DNA of 61,397 nt from an uncultured Christensenella sp. (lineage in GTDB: Bacteria; Bacillota; Clostridia; Christensenellales; UBA1242), in assembly GCA_905195085.1 (NCBI GenBank), contig CAJJUK010000003.1, forward strand, positions 1 through 61,397, written 5' to 3'. A program made the position numbers and the translations under genes. Every line of letters starts with the position of its first letter. Positions within the stretch are counted from its first letter, which is position 1. The notes under the pieces are model-generated. The model had not been told where the DNA came from. It made no database searches and was given only the letters and a program-made list of their open reading frames with translations. Below are positions 54,001 through 61,397 of this stretch, piece after piece.

Positions 54001-54598
54001 CGACATTGATTATGAAGTTAGAAAACCTGCTGTTCTCAAAGTTAAGAATGGTGAAACTGTTGAACCAGGAACTCAACTTACTGCAGGTGCAATCAACCCA
54101 ACAGATTTGCTTGTGACAAAAGGTCTTAAAGGACTTCAACAATATTTGCTTTCTGAAGTTATCTCTGTTTATCGTGGTCAAGATGTTAAGGTTAATGACA
54201 AACACATCGAAATCATCATCAGACAAATGCTTAAGAAAGTTAAGATTGAAGATTCTGGAGACACAAACCTTCTTTCTGGTGAAATTGTTGACATTTCTCG
54301 TTGTGACGAAGAAAATGAAAGAGTTTTGAAAGCTGGTGGAAAACCTGCTATTGCCAGAAGAATTCTTTTGGGTATCACAAAAGCTTCTCTTTCTACTGAA
54401 TCATTCCTTTCTGCTTCATCATTCCAGGAAACATCAAGAGTTTTGACTGATGCTGCAATCAAAGGCAAGGTTGACAATCTTATGGGTATCAAGGAAAATG
54501 TTATCATTGGAAAACTTATTCCTGCTGGTACTGGACTTAAGAAATATAGAACAGTTGTTCCTGTTAAAGTTGAAACAGAAGAAACAAATGTTGGTTAA
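51065..54598 (+). CDS. rpoC: DNA-directed RNA polymerase subunit beta'
   Basis: 1,177 aa. Zinc-binding CHCGKY...CDKCGVEV, catalytic NADFDGDQM, conserved RpoC blocks. Confidence 0.97.
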
Positions 54599-54605
54599 TA
54601 TTAAA

Positions 54606-54636
54606 AGGGCTTCCAATTTGGAAGTCTTTTTTTTGT
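54606..54636 (+). terminator. intrinsic terminator after rpoC
   Basis: AAAGGGCTTCC-AATTT-GGAAGTCTTT hairpin followed by a T-run. Confidence 0.7.
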
Positions 54637-54739
54637 TTAAAGATAAAAAATTTTCTTAAAATAAACAAAAAACTTTATTTTTGCATATTGAATTCGCATT
54701 TTTTTCGTGATATAATCAACTTAATTAAGGGGATATGCT

Positions 54740-55738
54740 ATGGAAGAAAAAAAGTTTGAGTTTAAGGGTGTTGATTATGACAAAAAAGAAAACGAAGAAT
54801 TGCTTTATGAATTTTTGAAACTGTATTCTTATTATATTTCTGATCGTTCATATGTTTATAAGACCACCAGAAAGGCGATGAAGGAAAAATTCGACAAAAT
54901 TAAGGATAATGTTGTCGATTTGGCCAAAAGAGGTTCTTTGAAAGCTTTGTCATTTTATCTCAATCAAGAGGAAAAAATTGATTGGGACGAGGAACTTGTG
55001 GAAATCGCAAAAAAAATAGAGAGCAGAGAAGGACTTAAATCTCCTGAAGAATGGGAGGTTGTTGCTGGACTTCATGTTTATGATAGGGTTTACATCATTA
55101 TTGATGATGAAGTTGACACAATCAAAAAACTTAATAGTGCGATGGCATATGAATGGGTGCGTTTCAACGAACTTGAAAATGAATATGACCATGGCAGATA
55201 TTATGACAGTATGAAAGATTATTATCAATTACACAGATACTCCAGAGAGGAATTCCAAGATTTGGTTGGTGCAAGTCGAAGAAAATGTAATTGGCTTTAT
55301 CAATGTTTGAAAACAGGCACATATGCTGATGCAATCAAACATGCTCAATTAGGTTTTTATGGTCGATATATGAAAGACAGAGATGTCAAGGCGTTGTGGC
55401 AATTTTTGGAACTTAAAAAATCTCCTTATGATTTCTATTTTGAAACCGATGAATTGAAGAAATTGACAGGGGAAAATTATTATTTAGGTGATTATCACTT
55501 CTTTGCCATTCTGAAAAAGGAAGCTCGCAAAAAGTTTTTTGATAAAGTTTTACACAAAAATAAAAATGGAGAAAGTATTGTGGACGGTTTTGCTTTTGCT
55601 CGTTCCATGAACTTGCTTGGAGAATCAAGTGGATTTGTGGGTGTTGGAAAGTATGACAAGAAAATCGACCAGGGATATGTGGAAATTGCAGAAAGAGAAA
55701 AAACTTATGGTGGAAGAGAAGTAATTTTGGGAAATTAA
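54740..55738 (+). CDS. hypothetical cytoplasmic protein (332 aa), no recognisable motif
   Basis: Clean ORF with AAGGGGA SD and an upstream TGATATAAT extended -10 (~54703-54711). No TM helix or signal peptide. I recognise no family. Confidence 0.6.
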   Translation: MEEKKFEFKGVDYDKKENEELLYEFLKLYSYYISDRSYVYKTTRKAMKEKFDKIKDNVVDLAKRGSLKALSFYLNQEEKIDWDEELVEIAKKIESREGLKSPEEWEVVAGLHVYDRVYIIIDDEVDTIKKLNSAMAYEWVRFNELENEYDHGRYYDSMKDYYQLHRYSREEFQDLVGASRRKCNWLYQCLKTGTYADAIKHAQLGFYGRYMKDRDVKALWQFLELKKSPYDFYFETDELKKLTGENYYLGDYHFFAILKKEARKKFFDKVLHKNKNGESIVDGFAFARSMNLLGESSGFVGVGKYDKKIDQGYVEIAEREKTYGGREVILGN

Positions 55739-55747
55739 AAATTTTTA

Positions 55748-55776
55748 TTGACAAATGCAATTTTTTCTATTAAAAT
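55748..55776 (+). promoter_or_regulatory. consensus sigma-70-type promoter for the Asn-leader / aspS-gatCAB transcript
   Basis: TTGACA, a 17-nt spacer, then TAAAAT. Confidence 0.6.
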
Positions 55777-55804
55777 GATAATATAATTTTTAAAGGAGCA
55801 GATT

Positions 55805-55891
55805 ATGTTTAGTTTTGTTACTGTTAACAACAATAATAATAACAATAATAACACATTAAACTTAATGGGTTCCTTTTGCGTTGTTGATTAA
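55805..55891 (+). CDS. 28-codon Asn-rich leader peptide (MFSFVTVNNNNNNNNNTLNLMGSFCVVD)
   Basis: AAAGGAG (55792-55798) lies 6 nt before the ATG. Nine consecutive Asn codons at 55826-55852 and a tenth at 55859-61. TAA at 55889-91. Placed between a consensus promoter and an intrinsic terminator. Confidence 0.6.
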   Translation: MFSFVTVNNNNNNNNNTLNLMGSFCVVD

Positions 55892-55916
55892 CAGTTGACA
55901 GAAAAAAGTTGATTGG

Positions 55917-55946
55917 CGGAGTAGGAGAGAACCTACTCCGTTTTTT
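55917..55946 (+). terminator. intrinsic terminator (attenuator) between the leader ORF and aspS
   Basis: CGGAGTAGG-AGAGAA-CCTACTCCG, a perfect 9-bp stem, followed by TTTTTT. About 160 nt upstream of aspS. Confidence 0.75.
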
Positions 55947-56104
55947 GTTATAATTTTTGTCTTTAAAGGAGAAATGTCATGAAATTTTCGAGATATAAAA
56001 TTAACGCCCTGTTGGGCGAGATGAGTTTGATTTAGAAATTTATAAAAAACAATATAATCATTTTAAATATTTATGAAAATTTGATAAAATAAAAAGGAGT
56101 TAAT

Positions 56105-57403
56105 ATGAAAACTGAAATTAAAGATATTGAAGTCGGTGTTGAATGTGAAATATCTGGTTGGATTGAAAAATTCAGAGAACAAAAAACCATGTTATTTCTT
56201 GTCCTGAGAGATAGAAGTGGGCAAATTCAAGTCACCATTGAAAAGGCTAAAATGCCGGAACTCTCCAAAACTTTGGCTGGTCTTATGAGAGACAGCGTTA
56301 TCAGAGTTAGGGGAACTGCTGTGAAAGCAGATTTTGTTAAACTTGGCGGAATTGAATTTTTGCCAAAAGAGGTCACGGTCGAAAGTGTTGCTCAAAACAT
56401 GCCTATCGACAGTGAAAGCGCTCCAGAATTGAAGCTGGATTATCGCTGGATTGACCTTCGTGATGAGAAAAAAAGATTGGTGTTTGAAATCAGAACATTT
56501 GTTGAACATGTGATGAGAGAATATTTTGTTGAACATGGTTTCATTGAAATTCACACACCAAAAATTTCCTCTCAATGTAGTGAGGGTGGTGCGGAAGTTT
56601 TTGCAGTTGATTATTATGGACAAAAAGCATATCTCACACAAAGTCCACAATTCTACAAGCAAATGGCAATTGCATCTGGTTTTGAAAAAGTTTTTGAAAT
56701 TGGACCTTATTATCGTGCAGAGAAATCTTATACTGCTCGTCACACCGCTGAAAGCACTTGCGTCGATTTTGAAATTGCTGATGTCAAATCTCATCATGAA
56801 ATTATGGATTTTGAAGAAGATTGGATTTTGTATGTTTTGCAAAGAGTCAAGGACAAATATGGCAGTTTGATTAAATCTGTTTTTGACACGGAAATCAAGC
56901 TTCCTACTGACAGAATTCCAAGAATCAAACTTTGTGATGTATTCAAAATTTTTAAAGAAGTTTATGGAATTGATGTACCTGAAGCAAAACAACTTGACCT
57001 TGATCCTGAGGCTGAAAAGTTGATATGTGAATATGCAAGAGATTATCTTGGAAGCGAACTTGTTTTCATCACAGACTATCCTGCAGAGGCTCGCGCATTC
57101 TATTCAAAAAGATATGACGATGACTCATTGGATTGTATGTCCTTGGATCTTCTCTATCGTGGTTGGGAAATGAACAGTGGAGCAGTCAGAGAACATAGAT
57201 ATGAAGTTTTGAAAAAGCAAATTGCAGAAAAAGGCATTGATCCTGACAAAATGGCTGGGTATTTGGAATTCTTTAAATATGGTTGTCCTCCTCATGGTGG
57301 AATTGGTCTTGGAATTGACAGATTTATTGCCAGACTTCTTGATTTGCCAAGCATTAAAGATTCTATTTTTGTATTCCGTGGACCAAGCCGATTGGTTCCT
57401 TAA
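56105..57403 (+). CDS. aspS: archaeal/eukaryal-type aspartyl-tRNA synthetase (probably non-discriminating)
   Basis: 432 aa class IIb synthetase. OB-fold N-domain, motif 2 FEIGPYYRAEKSYTARH, motif 3 GGIGLGIDRFIARLL, C-terminus FVFRGPSRLVP like archaeal-type AspRS. Directly followed by gatCAB. Confidence 0.8.
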   Translation: MKTEIKDIEVGVECEISGWIEKFREQKTMLFLVLRDRSGQIQVTIEKAKMPELSKTLAGLMRDSVIRVRGTAVKADFVKLGGIEFLPKEVTVESVAQNMPIDSESAPELKLDYRWIDLRDEKKRLVFEIRTFVEHVMREYFVEHGFIEIHTPKISSQCSEGGAEVFAVDYYGQKAYLTQSPQFYKQMAIASGFEKVFEIGPYYRAEKSYTARHTAESTCVDFEIADVKSHHEIMDFEEDWILYVLQRVKDKYGSLIKSVFDTEIKLPTDRIPRIKLCDVFKIFKEVYGIDVPEAKQLDLDPEAEKLICEYARDYLGSELVFITDYPAEARAFYSKRYDDDSLDCMSLDLLYRGWEMNSGAVREHRYEVLKKQIAEKGIDPDKMAGYLEFFKYGCPPHGGIGLGIDRFIARLLDLPSIKDSIFVFRGPSRLVP

Positions 57404-57415
57404 AGGAGAAAAGGT

Positions 57416-57688
57416 ATGGAAAAAATTGAACATTTGGAATATTTAAGTAAACTTAAATTCTCTGATGAAGAGAAATCAAGTTTTGAAAAAGATTTTGACA
57501 GCATTGTCGCTTTTGTTGATGAAATTAAGCAATTGGAATTGCCTGACGATTTGGAAAAAGATAATCCAATTCCTTTGTCACAACTGAGAAGTGACGAGCC
57601 AAAAGACAGCATGAGTCAACAGGAGGTGCTTATGAATGCACCAAAACAAAAGGACGGATGTTATGTAACTCCGCTGGTGGTGGAATGA
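57416..57688 (+). CDS. gatC: Asp/Glu-tRNA amidotransferase subunit C
   Basis: 90 aa. LSKLKFSDEEKSSFEKDFDSIVAFVDEI is typical GatC. GGAG SD. Stop TGA overlaps the gatA start (ATGA). Confidence 0.9.
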   Translation: MEKIEHLEYLSKLKFSDEEKSSFEKDFDSIVAFVDEIKQLELPDDLEKDNPIPLSQLRSDEPKDSMSQQEVLMNAPKQKDGCYVTPLVVE

Positions 57689-59106
57689 TGGATTATTCAA
57701 AATTTTCGCTTTTGGAACTTCGTGATGGCATCGCTTCTGGAAAAATGTCCAGTGAAGAGATTGTTAGATTTTTCATTAAACAATGTGAAGATAAAAAAGA
57801 GTTGAATGCCATGATTGAAATCTTTTATGATTCAATTGACAAAGCAAAAGAAATTGATGCAAAGGTTTCAAAGAAAGAAAAGTTGGGAGCTTTGGCCGGA
57901 GTTCCTGTTGCAATCAAAGACAACATTTTGTATAAGGGTAAAAAAATGAGTTGCGCAAGCAAGTTTTTGGAAGATTTTGTTGCGCCTTATTCTGCTACTA
58001 TCGTTGAAAAACTTCTTGCCGAAGATGCAATTATCATTGGTCGAACCAATATGGACGAATTTGCAATGGGTGGAAGCTGTGAAAATTCTATCTATGGTGC
58101 TTGCCATAATGCTGTCGATTTTGACTATGTTGCGGGGGGCAGCAGTGGCGGAAGTGCTGTTGCTGTTGCGAGTGGAATGGTGCCTTGCGCAATTGGAACG
58201 GACACAGGTGGTTCAATCAGGCAACCTGCATCTTTCAATGGCGTGGTTGGTGTCAAGCCTACATATGGCACTGTTTCGCGTTATGGAATTGTTGCTTTTG
58301 CAAGTTCTCTTGACCAAGCATCACCAATTGCAAAAACGGTTGAAGATTGTGAATTTGTCATGAAAATTTTGGCTGGAAAAGACGAGCACGATGGAACAAG
58401 CATAGTTAATGATTTTGGAAGCAAGAAAGAGAAATACACGATTGGAATTTGCAAACAAATTATTGATGTTTTCAAAACAAAACCGGGTTATGAAAAATTT
58501 GCTGATGCCATAGACAAAATTAAAGATGTTTTTGATGTTGTTGAAGTGGAAGTTCCACATATTTCAAATTCACTAGCTTGTTACTACATTCTTGCACCAG
58601 CAGAGGCCACCTCAAACCTTGCGCGCTTTGATGGGGTCAAATATTCAAAACGTAGCGAAAAGGCTAAGGACCTTGAAAGTGTCTATGTTGAAAGCAGAAG
58701 TGAAGGCTTTGGCAAGGAAGTTAAAAGAAGAATTATGCTTGGAAACTTTGTGCTCTCAAGTGGTTACTTTGATGCTTATTACAACAAAGCAAAGAAAGTG
58801 CAAAGGTTGATCAGAAAAGAATTCAAATCTGCATTTGAAAAATGTGATTGCATCATTTTGCCTACAACTTCAGGAACGGCATTCAAAATTGGAGAAAAAC
58901 TTGGTGACCCAGTGTCGATGTATATGGAAGATTTGTTCACAGTTCCAGCAAACATCGCAGGCATTCCTGCGGTTTCTGTTTCTTATGCTAAGGGGGAGAA
59001 TGGTTTGCCTTTGGGAATGCAGTTCTTCGCCGATGAAAAATGTGAAAACAAAATGTTTGACATCGCAAAACAGTTTCAAAAGACTTTGGGAGGTGAACTG
59101 AGATGA
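57685..59106 (+). CDS. gatA: Asp/Glu-tRNA amidotransferase subunit A
   Basis: Amidase signature GGSSGGSAVAVA...GTDTGGSIRQPA. ATG 57685 overlaps the gatC stop (the ORF opens earlier at 57658). Confidence 0.92.
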   Translation: MMDYSKFSLLELRDGIASGKMSSEEIVRFFIKQCEDKKELNAMIEIFYDSIDKAKEIDAKVSKKEKLGALAGVPVAIKDNILYKGKKMSCASKFLEDFVAPYSATIVEKLLAEDAIIIGRTNMDEFAMGGSCENSIYGACHNAVDFDYVAGGSSGGSAVAVASGMVPCAIGTDTGGSIRQPASFNGVVGVKPTYGTVSRYGIVAFASSLDQASPIAKTVEDCEFVMKILAGKDEHDGTSIVNDFGSKKEKYTIGICKQIIDVFKTKPGYEKFADAIDKIKDVFDVVEVEVPHISNSLACYYILAPAEATSNLARFDGVKYSKRSEKAKDLESVYVESRSEGFGKEVKRRIMLGNFVLSSGYFDAYYNKAKKVQRLIRKEFKSAFEKCDCIILPTTSGTAFKIGEKLGDPVSMYMEDLFTVPANIAGIPAVSVSYAKGENGLPLGMQFFADEKCENKMFDIAKQFQKTLGGELR

Positions 59107-60524
59107 GTTATTTAGATGGCTATGATGTTGTTATTGGTCTTGAAATTCATGCTGAATTAAATACCAAAACCAAAGTTTTTTGCAGTTGCAAAAACCAATT
59201 TGGAGATGAACCTAACACAAACACTTGCCCAGTTTGCACAGGTATGCCAGGAGCATTGCCAATCTTAAACAGACACGCAGTCGAACTTGCAATCAAATCA
59301 GGATTATCGTTTGGTTGTTCAATTTCTCCATATTCCGTTTTTGAAAGAAAAAATTATTTCTATCCAGACTTGAGCAAGGCATATCAAATAAGTCAGCTTG
59401 TTTATCCATTATGCGTTGGTGGAGAAATTGTTCTTGACAGCGGAAAGACAATCAGGTTGAACAGAATTCACTTGGAAGAAGATGCAGGAAAATTGACGCA
59501 TATAAGCAAAGCAGTTGGAACATTGGTGGATTACAACCGTGGTGGAACACCTCTTATCGAAATGGTTACCGAACCGGACATCTCTTCTGCTGATGAAGCG
59601 GTTGAATTTTTGAAAAAAGTGCGCGAAGCCCTTGTGTTTGAAGGTATTGCAAACTGCAAAATGGAAGAAGGGGGAATGCGTTGTGACGTCAATTTGTCCT
59701 TGAAGCCTAAAGGTTCAAAAGAATATGGAACAAGAACGGAGATGAAAAACCTCAACTCTTTCAAAAGTGTGCAGAGAGCCATTGAATATGAGGCAAAAAG
59801 ACAAGCAGAAATTTTATCAACTGGTGGTGTGATTGTTCAAGAAACAAGAAAATGGGACGATGACAAAGGAAAAAGTTCTGCAATGAGAACAAAGGAACAG
59901 GCACAGGACTATCGTTATTTTCCAGATCCAGATCTTTTGCCTTTGGAGATTTCCAAAGAAGATGTTGAAGCAATTGCAAAAGAAATGGTCATGCTTCCTG
60001 CAGATAGAAGAAAGATGTATGTTGAAAAATTTGGGTTGCCAGAATATGATGCTCAAATTTTGACTTCAACGAAATATATTTCTGACTATTTTGAAAAGTG
60101 CGTTTCGTTTTTTGATGTACCTAAAAAAATAAGCAACTGGATTATGGTCGATCTTTTGAAACTTGTCAAAGAACAAGATGAAATTGTCTTTCCAATTGAT
60201 GAATATAAATTGACCACAATAATCAAAATGGTGGAAGAAAAAACGATAAACAAAACAGTTGGGTTGCAACTTTTGGATAAGGTTATTGAAACAGGAAAAG
60301 AACCTATGACTCTTGCAAAAGAAATGAATTTGCTTGTCACAATCACAGATGAACAAATTGTTCAACTGCTCGAAAAATTGAAAGCGGAGAACGAAAAAGT
60401 GGTACAAGACTTCAAAAAATCCCCAGAAAAAGTGATGGGATTCATTGTTGGTTATGTTATGAAAAACACAGGTGGGAAGGCAAATTCAAACAGAGTCAAA
60501 GAACTTATTTCAGAAAAATTTTAA
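59103..60524 (+). CDS. gatB: Asp/Glu-tRNA amidotransferase subunit B
   Basis: 473 aa. VIGLEIHAELNTKTKVFC, CPVCTGMPGALP, C-terminal YqeY-like tail. The ATG overlaps the gatA stop (ATGA). Confidence 0.92.
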   Translation: MSYLDGYDVVIGLEIHAELNTKTKVFCSCKNQFGDEPNTNTCPVCTGMPGALPILNRHAVELAIKSGLSFGCSISPYSVFERKNYFYPDLSKAYQISQLVYPLCVGGEIVLDSGKTIRLNRIHLEEDAGKLTHISKAVGTLVDYNRGGTPLIEMVTEPDISSADEAVEFLKKVREALVFEGIANCKMEEGGMRCDVNLSLKPKGSKEYGTRTEMKNLNSFKSVQRAIEYEAKRQAEILSTGGVIVQETRKWDDDKGKSSAMRTKEQAQDYRYFPDPDLLPLEISKEDVEAIAKEMVMLPADRRKMYVEKFGLPEYDAQILTSTKYISDYFEKCVSFFDVPKKISNWIMVDLLKLVKEQDEIVFPIDEYKLTTIIKMVEEKTINKTVGLQLLDKVIETGKEPMTLAKEMNLLVTITDEQIVQLLEKLKAENEKVVQDFKKSPEKVMGFIVGYVMKNTGGKANSNRVKELISEKF

Positions 60525-60843: not shown

Positions 60844-60882
60844 ATAAATAAATGAACTACAAAGATTTTCTGCCTGCTACTA

Positions 60883-60956
60883 TAAGTGTACGAGGAATTG
60901 AACCCCGACTCAATCGATTAAAAGTCGATAGCTTTATCCAATTAAGCTATACACTC
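60883..60956 (-). tRNA. tRNA-Lys (anticodon UUU)
   Basis: 74-nt cloverleaf on the minus strand. Acceptor GAGTGTA/TACACTT, D stem GCTT/AAGC, anticodon stem ATCGA/TCGAT with loop CTTTTAA, T arm CGGGG-TTCAATT-CCTCG. No encoded CCA. Confidence 0.8.
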
Positions 60957-60983
60957 ACATTAATTATTTTAAAATAATTATCT

Positions 60984-61069
60984 TGATTTCGAACAGATTC
61001 GAACTGTTGACGTGGAAAACCACTTTGGATTTACAGTCCAACGCTTTAGACCAACTGAGCTACGAAATC
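60984..61069 (-). tRNA. tRNA-Tyr (anticodon GUA), class II with long variable arm
   Basis: 86-nt cloverleaf on the minus strand. Acceptor GATTTCG/CGAAATC, anticodon stem TTGGA/TCCAA with loop CTGTAAA, variable arm GTGG-TTTT-CCAC, T arm AACAG-TTCGAAT-CTGTT. Confidence 0.8.
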
Positions 61070-61081
61070 TTATTTTTATAA

Positions 61082-61397
61082 ATTTAACAAAAAATTAGTA
61101 CTTATTAGCAATTTATATAAACATTAAGCCTATTAAAGTAATAGTCTCTTACTTTTTTTTGAGAAAATAAGAAAAAAAGCTTCATACTTATATTTATTCA
61201 GTATTTATCTTTCATTGATTTAGCTACTAAGCAATACAAATTGAGAATTTATAACTTATATACCATTGATCAATCTAATTCGGTCCTCTCGTACTAGAAT
61301 TATTCTTTTCTTCTTTTCTTTATTATATGGCAGATAGGGACAAAACTGTCTCACGACGTTTTAAACCCAGCTCACGTACCTCTTTAAATGGCGAACA
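61082..61397 (-). rRNA. rrl: 23S (LSU) rRNA, 3'-terminal ~315 nt, truncated by the window end; extremely AT-rich
   Basis: The reverse complement reads TGTTCGCCATTTAAAGAGGTACGTGAGCTGGGTTTAAAACGTCGTGAGACAGTTTTGTCCCTATCTGCC...TAGTACGAGAGGACCG (sarcin-ricin loop)...GTACTAAT. This matches the universally conserved 3' domain of 23S. The variable helices are almost pure A/T. The 3' end coordinate is approximate. Confidence 0.85.

Follow-up and report, generated by a model that had tools for sequence, protein, structure and literature searches.

A probable asparagine-codon attenuator in the leader of the aspS-gatCAB operon of uncultured Clostridia

Results

An asparagine-codon leader precedes aspS-gatCAB

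The aspS-gatCAB operon in the window (the whole 61,397-nt stretch of DNA analysed here) is preceded by a leader which, judged from its sequence and that of its relatives, probably acts as a ribosome-mediated (leader-peptide) transcription attenuator reading the supply of Asn-tRNA(Asn). This interpretation was proposed in an initial annotation of the same DNA and is supported here by the conservation of the leader, by its equivalence to T-boxes with an AAC specifier in sister lineages, and by the complementarity of the leader to its own terminator. The promoter, Shine-Dalgarno sequence (SD), first leader ORF (uORF1), nine plus one Asn codons and terminator that had been described were all recovered (Table 1), with the tenth Asn codon at 55859-55861. 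The terminator hairpin itself occupies 55917-55940 and its T6 tract 55941-55946, while a terminator scan places the element at 55915-55942 with an energy of -14.8 kcal/mol. The run in uORF1 is the sole run of at least four Asn codons in the six frames of the 61-kb window, and in 463 kb of related loci all 14 runs of at least five Asn codons are aspS leaders.

Table 1. Features of the leader and operon, in coordinates of the window
Feature	Position	Strand	Evidence or remark
Sigma-70-type promoter of leader and operon, TTGACA-17-TAAAAT	55748-55776	+	11/12; top match in 54500-57500
Shine-Dalgarno of uORF1, AAAGGAG	55792-55798	+	6 nt 5' of ATG 55805; complementary to region 2 (GGUUCCUUU)
Leader ORF uORF1, MFSFVTVNNNNNNNNNTLNLMGSFCVVD-stop	55805-55891	+	28 codons; translated sequence
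Region 1 segment	55821-55833	+	complementary to 55881-55894
Asn-codon run (putative sensing run), nine consecutive, mixed AAC/AAU	55826-55852	+	belongs to region 1
Small A/U hairpin, CAUUAA-AC-UUAAUG	55854-55867	+	between Asn run and region 2; constrained folds
Region 2, GGGUUCCUUUUGCGUUGUUGAUUAACAG	55867-55894	+	putative antiterminator 5' strand; alternative partners Asn run and SD
Region 3, AAAGUUGAUUGG plus terminator 5' arm and loop	55905-55931	+	putative antiterminator 3' strand
Intrinsic terminator (3:4), CGGAGTAGG-AGAGAA-CCTACTCCG plus T6	55917-55946	+	9-bp stem, 6-nt loop
uORF2, MKFSRYKINALLGEMSLI-stop (55979-56035), with SD AAAGGAG (55965-55971)	55965-56035	+	between terminator and aspS
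Asn codon AAC (56003-56005) abutting hairpin CGCCC-UGUU-GGGCG (56005-56018)	56003-56018	+	sequence, conservation
aspS, archaeal-type non-discriminating AspRS (aspartate--tRNA(Asn) ligase), 432 aa	56105-57403	+	Pfam PF00152, PF01336; NCBIfam NF003483
gatC (57416-57688), gatA (57658-59106), gatB (59103-60524)	57416-60524	+	Pfam GatC, Amidase, GatB_N, GatB_Yqey

The identity of the downstream genes also stood up to scrutiny. The AspRS of the window scores 435.8 bits against NCBIfam NF003483 (cutoff 353), as expected of the archaeal-type enzyme that had been named, and the GatC, Amidase and GatB domains found by Pfam identify gatC, gatA and gatB, which lie 3' of aspS and are adjacent or overlapping. 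The gene order aspS-gatCAB is constant at every Asn-uORF locus with sufficient downstream DNA; the genes 5' of the leader vary among loci, so that aspS-gatCAB is the constant neighbour.

The layout is conserved and its sequences are not

We compared 24 loci, namely the window and 23 further ones, which represent about 19 lineages and whose AspRS identity ranges from 98% down to 47%. As predicted by the proposal in the initial annotation, a promoter, an SD, an Asn-run uORF and a terminator precede aspS-gatCAB in all 24, and the layout was found in every close relative with upstream DNA and in several loci at ~50% AspRS identity. The near-consensus promoter (10-12 of 12 positions, 17-nt spacer) lies 22-46 nt 5' of the uORF in nearly all lineages. 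At every locus the run shares the frame of an ATG preceded by an SD and consists of 6-9 Asn codons or of Asn and Asp codons mixed (e.g., NNNDNNNDN), the mixed runs holding codons for both tRNAs that ND-AspRS charges. Conservation of the uORF1 peptide is limited to this Asn/Asp run, with flanking residues varying freely. The terminator follows 20-53 nt past the uORF stop (24/24 loci), and its stem has 14 different sequences among 19 lineages, always with a U-tract next to it.

The part of the leader 3' of the run is conserved in another way. GGGTTC and TTT of region 2 are invariant in alignment A1, and GGGUUCC is conserved both within the uORF and, in other lineages, beyond its stop codon. Since the conserved 'MGSF' thus lies past the uORF stop codon in several lineages, we take it to be an RNA element (region 2) and not a peptide. 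The distance from the end of the Asn run to GGGTT is 14-26 nt across lineages (14 nt in the window), and relative to the first base of the stop codon GGGTT lies between 25 nt upstream and 17 nt downstream; with such spacing a ribosome stalled on the run would leave region 2 free, and a ribosome at the stop would cover it. Between the run and region 2 of the window lies a small A/U hairpin whose counterpart in lineage L002 is CAUUAU-UU-AUAAUG, with both sides changed, and which is possibly a spacer or pause element. The whole pattern fits an attenuator, because the peptide is free outside the run, GGGUUCC is kept in or out of the ORF, and the stems vary but the U-tract is constant.

The leaders also differ in what separates the terminator from aspS. 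In one set of lineages (group 2) no more than 20-52 nt separate the end of the terminator from aspS, which leaves no room for another promoter. In the other (group 1, including the window) this gap is 124-248 nt and contains promoter-like matches of 8-10/12 (9-10/12 in the window) that are neither conserved nor unusual for AT-rich DNA; because of these matches in the long gap, some terminator-independent transcription is possible at group-1 loci. One sub-lineage carries the Asn leader 5' of a non-orthologous, bacterial-type AspRS (NF001750, 739.9 bits) with GatCAB still next, the leader having been kept through the replacement of AspRS by a different type.

A metagenome scan with a narrow pattern, running from five Asn codons to GGGTTCCTTT, returned 27 stretches, among them five real leaders, each 5' of aspS. 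We rejected the other 22 of the 27 as chance matches in repeat-rich, probably eukaryotic, DNA. With this narrow pattern no Asn leader was found in the metagenome scan before any gene other than aspS.

Asn T-boxes take the place of the leader in sister lineages

The initial annotation had stated that there is no T-box here, and we agree: neither a T-box (RF00230) nor any other Rfam family matches the window at gathering score, no T-box appears even at E<=10, and at that threshold the leader segment 55600-56250 retrieves from Rfam 15 only non-specific sRNA and miRNA models far below their gathering scores. Likewise, an Rfam scan of 20 related leader loci found no T-box, no His, Trp, Leu or Thr leader and no other family, while the same scan detects T-boxes of 119-149 bits in sister loci. 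A T-box or a known leader family was therefore rejected for the window on the basis of these scans.

All 11 aspS loci with the T-box motif GAAAGAACAC (L020, L025-L032, L051 and L072) have the specifier AAC (Asn), and gat genes are next in 10 of them, the sequence of the eleventh ending too early to tell; T-boxes of stand-alone aspS genes carry the specifier GAC. Clades with the uORF and clades with the T-box interleave on the AspRS tree. Sister lineages with either an Asn T-box or an Asn-codon leader on one operon thus offer a clean natural experiment, with two unrelated RNA elements, both presumed sensors of one charged tRNA, replacing each other.

Region 2 is complementary to the terminator of its own lineage

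With MAFFT and RNAalifold the hairpins came out misaligned, in full leaders as well as in terminator segments, and no consensus structure emerged. For this reason structures were compared by per-lineage folding, by duplex energies set against natural controls and by a permutation test.

The pairings drawn by eye in the initial annotation proved feasible, at -28.1 kcal/mol for 2:3 and -11.7 kcal/mol for 1:2 in the window. The 2:3 duplex is exceptional: no terminator among 136 generic ones equals it in pairing with region 2 (their mean is -9.6 kcal/mol). Over the lineages the duplex with the own terminator averages -19.4 kcal/mol, against about -8 to -10 for generic terminators of the same genomes. 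In 10 of 19 lineages not one of the 136 equals the own terminator, and in 18 of 19 at most a fraction of 0.074 does so. When region 2 was paired with the terminators of other lineages in the permutation test, the matched pairs were better in 20000 of 20000 cases. Groups 1 (GGGUUCCUUUU with GGAACC loops) and 2 (GGGUUUUUAUUG with CAAUAAAAACCC loops) differ in region 2 and loop together. Antiterminator complementarity follows each lineage's own terminator. If the leader of the window is folded up to but without the terminator 3' arm, region 2 takes up 13 nt of the 5' arm and loop in a pairing of -18.1 kcal/mol, an energy reached by 0 of 200 shuffles.

The 1:2 pairing is less general. In the window only 0.7% of random windows match it, while across the set just 12 of 19 lineages have a 1:2 pairing that exceeds random windows (fraction <=0.05), and the pairing is weak in L002, L003, L098, L005, L012, L095 and L104. 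The minimum free energy (MFE) fold of the free leader departs from the drawing by eye, as it gives GGUUCCUUU of region 2 another partner, uORF1's own SD, AAAGGAGC. This SD:region 2 duplex has -10 to -14 kcal/mol in group-1 lineages, better than random windows in most, and it corrects the earlier description of the leader.

Equilibrium folding under ribosome masks is ambiguous

Masking the leader as the initial annotation had suggested gave a terminator probability of 0.845 under the stalled-ribosome mask, versus 0.999 with the ribosome at the stop, and did not reveal a robust switch. With all mRNA occupied up to the stalled ribosome, the terminator probability in the window falls from 0.97 to 0.00-0.01; a ribosome at the stop gives 0.98. 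When only a single 30-nt footprint is masked and the SD is left free, the terminator stays at 0.84-0.96. It persists under such masks because AAAGGAGC pairs with GGUUCCUUU. In energy, the antiterminator state hardly differs from the terminator state (-27.1 vs -27.2 kcal/mol). For transcripts of the window that lack the 3' arm, the probability that the 5' arm pairs with upstream sequence is 0.73 with the stalled ribosome vs 0.12 with the ribosome at the stop, a contrast that is present in only 10 of 19 lineages. Equilibrium mask folding is thus model-dependent and ambiguous. From this we conclude that, as far as such models go, either the kinetics of folding or a queue of ribosomes is needed for the switch to work.

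A second leader ORF has an Asn codon next to an invariant hairpin

Between the terminator and aspS lies a second short ORF, uORF2, which is absent from the initial annotation. A uORF2 led by a strong SD and holding an Asn codon in frame is present in 18 of 18 group-1 loci (13 lineages), with a variable number of codons (5-13) before the Asn; group-2 leaders have no uORF2, only uORF1 and the terminator. The GCCC..GGGC hairpin that the Asn codon abuts is unique in the window, and in 463 kb all 11 occurrences of AAY-GCCC..GGGC are in aspS leaders. The fifth pair of the hairpin uses the wobble base of the codon and is C-G, U-A or U.G, never C/A. We looked in the leaders for a conserved pairing of the hairpin region with the aspS SD and for a conserved second terminator, and 3' of the T-boxes of sister lineages for an element like uORF2; none of these was found.

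Discussion

How the leader may work

Based on these findings, we propose that transcription would start at the promoter of the leader and that uORF1 would be translated as the leader emerges. With ample Asn-tRNA(Asn), the ribosome would cross the nine Asn codons to the stop and cover or pass region 2 (GGGUUCC...), the terminator would form, and most transcripts would stop before aspS. With scarce Asn-tRNA(Asn), the ribosome would stall in the Asn run and leave region 2 free to pair with the segment just 5' of the terminator and with the 5' arm and loop of the terminator itself. With the terminator prevented in this way, RNA polymerase would enter aspS-gatCAB, which encodes the enzymes of Asn-tRNA(Asn) synthesis by transamidation. 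In an untranslated leader, the SD and the Asn run would hold region 2 and the terminator would form, so that the default would be off. Read-through under a shortage of Asn-tRNA(Asn) and the kinetic order of folding are what we infer from the conserved parts.

We further suggest, tentatively and as a somewhat doubtful extension, that the leader is a two-stage sensor in which the Asn-run attenuator is followed by a checkpoint at uORF2 for read-through transcripts, based on a single codon and assisted by the hairpin. This second stage would be a single 'hungry' Asn codon (Asp in some lineages) set directly against the invariant GCCC/GGGC hairpin, and what becomes of the aspS-gatCAB mRNA would depend on whether a ribosome pauses at this codon or passes it. 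This might work by masking or exposing an RNase site guided by the hairpin, through a stalled ribosome that stabilises the 5' end, or by blocking a protein that binds the hairpin.

Alternative explanations

Conceivably, though with low probability, the main output of the leader is translation or mRNA stability, exerted through the SD/anti-SD-like pairing and through uORF2 with its hairpin, and the terminator only insulates the operon or ends a small leader transcript. Region 2 is indeed anti-SD-like and pairs with the SD of uORF1, uORF2, its Asn codon and the invariant hairpin are conserved past the terminator in 13 lineages, and the terminator is kept in many masked equilibrium folds. Yet group 2 does without uORF2 and still has uORF1 and a terminator, which lies 20-52 nt from aspS, a search of the leaders showed no conserved pairing with the aspS SD, and the lineage-specific complementarity of region 2 to the terminator 5' arm would be purposeless unless it competes with the terminator. 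We also consider it unlikely that the leader depends on translation while reading something other than the charging of tRNA(Asn), such as poly-Asn arrest (alone or with a small molecule, e.g., free asparagine) or an NAY run that reports the queuosine state of tRNA or the general elongation rate. Asn has two codons and one tRNA, so effects of the codon and of the amino acid are inseparable by sequence alone. Both Asn and Asp tRNAs carry Q34, and the runs of some leaders contain codons for both amino acids, as a queuosine reading would have it. An arrest peptide, however, would not be expected to vary in run length and composition (6-9 Asn, or Asp interspersed) with free flanks, and a signal independent of charging sits poorly with sister operons that use a tRNA(Asn)-specific T-box, a direct charging sensor, and with regulated genes that are exactly those charging tRNA(Asn).

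The remaining alternatives deny uORF1 a role in regulating the operon. Its own strong promoter, SD and terminator, together with the promoter-like matches of 9-10/12 before aspS in the window, would suit an independent gene for a small peptide (a RiPP precursor, bacteriocin or signalling peptide) beside a separately promoted aspS-gatCAB. We regard this as very improbable, given a peptide that is unconserved beyond the Asn run and leaves 'MGSF' outside the ORF in several lineages, the absence of linked modification or export genes, upstream neighbours that vary while aspS-gatCAB is constant, group-2 leaders with no room for a second promoter, and a terminator loop complementary to region 2. As for a chance low-complexity AAT/AAC repeat beside an ordinary terminator in AT-rich DNA, the base composition of the window (35% G+C) lends itself to such repeats, but the idea is refuted by the uniqueness of the run in 61 kb, by the leader position of 14 of 14 runs in 463 kb and by the reading frame being kept everywhere. 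The preferred reading is still that of an attenuator responding to Asn-tRNA(Asn).

Relation to known systems

In Clostridia, T-boxes usually do such regulation. The ND-AspRS/GatCAB operon of Clostridium acetobutylicum is under T-box control (Saad et al. 2012, J Biol Chem 287:20382, as cited in PMC4206432), and the leader described here shares with that Asn T-box, and with the AAC-specifier T-boxes of the sister lineages, the type of operon, the inferred signal (charging of tRNA(Asn)) and the output (read-through of an intrinsic terminator). The means differ, as the T-box is a riboswitch of ~220 nt that binds the tRNA directly, whereas here a translated leader of ~90 nt would rely on ribosome stalling. 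A similar exchange is described for Firmicutes, where His-codon leader attenuators replace His T-boxes or HisR (PMC9413887). Those leaders resemble ours in phylum, in the lineage-specific swap of T-box and leader on one operon and in resting on comparative genomics only, but they serve histidine biosynthesis operons, have 3-5 His codons and are unrelated in sequence.

With the classical attenuators of E. coli and Salmonella (trp, his, leu, thr, ilv and pheA), the leader has in common a promoter, an SD-led ORF with regulatory codons, an intrinsic terminator, overlapping alternative pairings (2:3 and 3:4, with a putative 1:2), and a predicted stalled-ribosome footprint that ends just 5' of region 2. 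Unlike them, it has Asn codons, a target outside free-amino-acid biosynthesis, no homology to Rfam leader families, a region 2 that also pairs with the leader SD, a second uORF past the terminator in one clade, and a host in Bacillota, class Clostridia. In E. coli pheST, a Phe-rich leader peptide controls phenylalanyl-tRNA synthetase by attenuation. There, too, attenuation acts on an aminoacyl-tRNA synthetase operon and the product sensed is the charged tRNA made by the regulated enzyme. Here, however, the route would be indirect, ND-AspRS making Asp-tRNA(Asn) and GatCAB amidating it, so that the end product of two enzymes would be sensed; the two leaders also differ in amino acid, phylum and RNA family. 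Leaders with several uORFs are found at Salmonella mgtCBR (mgtM/mgtP) and mgtA (mgtL), where stem-loops are exchanged and, in mgtA, Rho takes part. The leader resembles these in having more than one short ORF, each with codons that are proposed as sensors of one charged tRNA or metabolite, and differs in that the uORF2 hairpin has no identified alternative partner.

The initial annotation knew of no Asn leader-peptide attenuator for this pathway, and our literature search likewise found no prior report of one; the main text of Weinberg et al. 2017 makes no mention of aspS. The best reading of the sequences is that the mechanism is a known one, leader-peptide attenuation, and that its specificity for Asn and its ND-AspRS/GatCAB target are new.

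Implications

The leader is compact (~200 nt) and appears to represent an uncatalogued cis-regulatory family that is useful for annotating uncultured gut Clostridia, and it might be put to use as an Asn-tRNA-responsive part. In uORF2 and its invariant hairpin there is a tangible pointer to what may be a new kind of single-codon sensor. If the two-stage reading is true, the leader would contain a hairpin-assisted, single-codon sensor of charged tRNA of an undescribed kind, stacked on the first leader-peptide attenuator known for indirect (transamidation) tRNA charging. With the attenuator that we propose, asparagine and the pathway of tRNA-dependent amidation would join the short list of processes under leader-peptide attenuation.

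The leader and its operon

We consider it likely that the aspS-gatCAB operon of the window is governed by a leader-peptide attenuator that reads Asn codons. All leader elements listed in the initial annotation are present in the sequence, and the downstream genes are those that it named: AspRS, followed by GatC, GatA and GatB. The AspRS, an archaeal-type enzyme of 432 aa, scores 435.8 bits with the NCBIfam equivalog NF003483 (aspartate--tRNA(Asn) ligase), whose cutoff is 353. In the 61-kb window (35% G+C), taken in all six frames, the Asn run of the leader ORF (uORF1) is the sole run of at least four Asn codons, a uniqueness that rules out a composition artefact as its source.

Features of the leader and its surroundings (window coordinates unless stated otherwise)
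Feature	Position	Remarks
Giant ORF, 6705 aa	2-20119 (+)	Runs off window start
Giant ORF, 3553 aa	35597-46258 (+)	
332-aa ORF	54740-55738 (+)	Ends 10 nt before -35 hexamer of leader promoter
Promoter TTGACA-17-TAAAAT	55748-55776	Score 11/12, best promoter-like match in 54500-57500
SD AAAGGAG of uORF1	55792-55798	6 nt 5' of ATG 55805
SD segment AAAGGAGC	55792-55799	Pairs with GGUUCCUUU
uORF1 MFSFVTVNNNNNNNNNTLNLMGSFCVVD, stop	55805-55891	28 codons
Asn run of uORF1	55826-55852	Nine consecutive Asn codons; tenth at 55859-55861
A/U hairpin CAUUAA-AC-UUAAUG	55854-55867	Adjoins 5' side of region 2
Region 2 segment GGUUCCUUU	55868-55877	
Terminator hairpin, 9-bp, GC-rich	55917-55940	T6 directly 3'
Extended -10-like TGTTATAAT	55944-55955	Continues terminator U-tract
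SD of uORF2	55965-55971	
uORF2 MKFSRYKINALLGEMSLI, stop	55979-56035	
Asn codon and hairpin of uORF2	56003-56018	Hairpin 56005-56018
tRNA-Lys(UUU), tRNA-Tyr(GUA), 3' end of 23S rRNA gene	60882-61397 (-)	Just past gatB
Asn T-boxes of L020, L025-L032, L051, L072	120-270 nt upstream of aspS	

The 332-aa ORF directly upstream is without a match in Pfam or NCBIfam, and since no terminator lies between it and the leader, transcription could read through from upstream. Past gatB, the tRNA and 23S rRNA genes lie on the opposite strand, so that the operon is convergent with an rRNA/tRNA cluster; both giant ORFs share the strand of rpoC and the aspS operon. The extended -10-like sequence is conserved only in L001, the closest relative, and is therefore probably due to chance.

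Occurrence in related genomes

A protein scan with AspRS, taking one genome per species, gave 80 loci. All of them belong to MAGs of uncultured gut Bacillota, among which the nearest bear the label Clostridia and one is assigned to Candidatus Caccovivens. Wherever upstream DNA is available for a close relative (L001-L003, L005-L013; 69-98% AspRS identity), aspS is preceded by a short ORF that has an SD and an unbroken run of 4-9 Asn codons, at least six except in L013. Seven loci at 47-51% identity (L015-L019, L021, L045) also have an Asn-run uORF in this position, several with mixed Asn/Asp runs such as MFTLVNNNDNNNDNTI, and a DNA-pattern scan of metagenome contigs yielded five further leaders. 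Across six frames of 463 kb of related loci, 14/14 runs of at least five Asn codons are aspS leaders.

Conservation of an Asn-rich uORF plus terminator, which the initial annotation had put forward as a check on its proposal, was found: an intrinsic terminator lies 20-53 nt past the uORF stop in 24/24 loci, always followed by a U-tract. Across 19 lineages the stems have 14 different 5'-arm sequences, each stem position showing three to five types of base pair, and conservation of the leader peptide is confined to the Asn/Asp run. In nearly all lineages the uORF has a promoter before it that scores 10-12/12 and has a spacer of 17 nt, and in each Asn-uORF locus whose downstream DNA extends far enough, gatC, gatA and gatB directly follow aspS.

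In L095, L104 and L106, all three from the metagenome scan, the same two-uORF leader precedes a 577-aa bacterial-type AspRS (NF001750, 739.9 bits; 29% identity to the window enzyme), and GatCAB again follows in L095 (AspRS from ~3211 in the oriented copy), the only one of the three whose downstream DNA reaches far enough. What the leader tracks is therefore the function of aspS-gatCAB rather than one aspS gene; it looks as if either aspS was replaced by a non-orthologous gene while the leader stayed in place, or the leader was transferred. In a Bacilli MAG (L073), an archaeal-type aspS lies directly after a gene whose C-terminus resembles, by eye, that of a class II AsnRS (...GFGLGFERLV...YPRTP; locus ~2050-2490); gatA and gatB matches lie downstream, and this locus is without a leader.

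Alternative pairings in the leader RNA

The 'MGSF' motif is an RNA element, UGGGUUCCUUUU (region 2), and not a peptide: it lies inside uORF1 in the window lineage, whereas in L005-L008 and L098 it directly follows the stop codon. It begins 14-26 nt after the last codon of the run, just past the 3' boundary of a ribosome halted at that codon, and together with its 3' continuation it is complementary to region 3, comprising the pre-terminator sequence and the 5' arm and loop of the terminator. The loops are GGAACC-like in group 1 leaders, matching GGGUUCCUUUU, and CAAUAAAAACCC-like in group 2 leaders, matching GGGUUUUUAUUG.

With its own terminator, the region 2:region 3 duplex averages -19.4 kcal/mol, against about -8 to -10 kcal/mol for region 2 with 136 generic terminators, taken by the same procedure from the window and the loci. 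None of these was as good as the lineage's own terminator in 10/19 lineages, and the fraction that was did not exceed 0.074 in 18/19. Matched pairs surpassed lineage-permuted pairs in 20000/20000 permutations, and cross-group combinations were weak (-8.2 and -11.8). The pairing that the initial annotation had drawn by eye between these regions is feasible, reaching -28.1 kcal/mol in the window. Its second pairing, of region 1 (the Asn run and 5' flank) with region 2, is feasible in the window too (-11.7 kcal/mol, equalled by 0.7% of random windows) but was better than random same-locus windows, for the 3' part of region 2, in only 12/19 lineages.

In group 1 only, region 2 resembles an anti-SD and forms a helix of -10 to -14 kcal/mol with the SD of uORF1. 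In the window, the free leader has this helix in its MFE fold (z = -5.1 versus shuffles), where it encloses the entire leader ORF; its effect would be either to stop leader translation once the decision has been made or to keep the leader off by default. The small A/U hairpin beside region 2 has counterparts in other lineages, is altered on both sides in L002, and may act as a spacer or cause pausing.

Proposed attenuation mechanism

In this mechanism, a ribosome stalled on the Asn codons would free region 2 to capture the terminator 5' arm, while a ribosome at the stop codon would cover or have passed region 2 and the terminator would form; in an untranslated leader, region 2 would be held by the SD and region 1. 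In silico folding gives this only partial support. In a model in which the leader is covered as far as the stalled ribosome, the window terminator probability is 0.01 and 0.00 with the A site in the middle and last Asn codon, respectively, against 0.97 in free RNA and 0.98 with the ribosome at the stop. A single 30-nt footprint that leaves the SD free keeps it at 0.84-0.96. The masking comparison suggested in the initial annotation gave 0.845 for the stalled ribosome and 0.999 at the stop. Antiterminator and terminator states are nearly isoenergetic in the window. In transcripts cut before the 3' arm, the window 5' arm is paired upstream at 0.73 (stalled) versus 0.12 (at stop), a contrast present in only 10/19 lineages. 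As these tests gave no consistent switch, we infer that the terminator decision must be kinetic; a second ribosome on the SD, queued or initiating, is probably also needed.

A second leader ORF

A further ORF preceded by a strong SD (uORF2) lies between the terminator and aspS in 18/18 group-1 loci. These represent 13 lineages, among them the ones whose AspRS is bacterial-type, and the position of uORF2 is shared among the window, L001-L013, L095, L096, L098, L104 and L106. Its N-terminal 5-13 codons vary in sequence and length, and an in-frame Asn codon always adjoins the 5' side of an invariant GCCC-N4-6-GGGC hairpin. The fifth pair, between the codon wobble base and the base after GGGC, is C-G, U-A or U.G, never C/A. 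There are three in-frame copies of the Asn-hairpin motif in L012, and a second hairpin copy preceded by GAC (Asp) in L005, L006 and L096; GAU stands beside the Asn codon in L013 and L012. The window has no second copy of the hairpin sequence, and the motif is confined to aspS leaders in 463 kb of relatives and absent from group-2 and T-box leaders. No U-tract follows the hairpin, and a search for a conserved pairing partner at the aspS SD found none. We regard uORF2 as a probable second translation-linked checkpoint.

T-boxes and known attenuators

Among the 80 loci, aspS with gatCAB is preceded by either an Asn uORF or a T-box. The T-box matches score 119-149 bits, and in 11/11 the specifier loop is GAAAGAACAC, giving the specifier AAC (Asn), which overlaps a GAA (Glu) triplet. 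This overlap may resemble the two-codon 'NT-box' reportedly present in C. acetobutylicum. T-boxes before stand-alone aspS (L022, L056) have the specifier GAC (Asp), and one MAG combines such an Asp-T-box aspS (L022) with a separate Asn-leader aspS-gatCAB (L016/L017). In a neighbour-joining AspRS tree, the group-2 uORF clade, the AAC-T-box clade and L016/L017 are adjacent. T-box control of ND-AspRS/GatCAB has been published for C. acetobutylicum (Saad et al. 2012, as cited in PMC4206432), and the his operons of Firmicutes offer an earlier case in which a T-box and a leader-peptide attenuator replace each other on the same operon (PMC9413887).

The window leader itself is not a T-box, as the initial annotation held: Rfam 15 returns no match even at E<=10. 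Nor is the Asn leader homologous to any curated RNA family of Rfam 15 (window and 20 related leader loci). Full-text literature searches turned up neither an attenuator with an Asn-codon leader nor any control of aspS-gatCAB by a leader peptide, which does not prove that none has been described. The leader would work like the trp, his and pheST attenuators and has the sequence-testable features of that class, apart from the region 1:region 2 pairing (12/19 lineages) and the in silico switch (model-dependent). We classify the SD:region 2 pairing and the second uORF as features beyond the known class, and the amino-acid specificity and the target, an indirect tRNA-charging pathway, as what is new in it.
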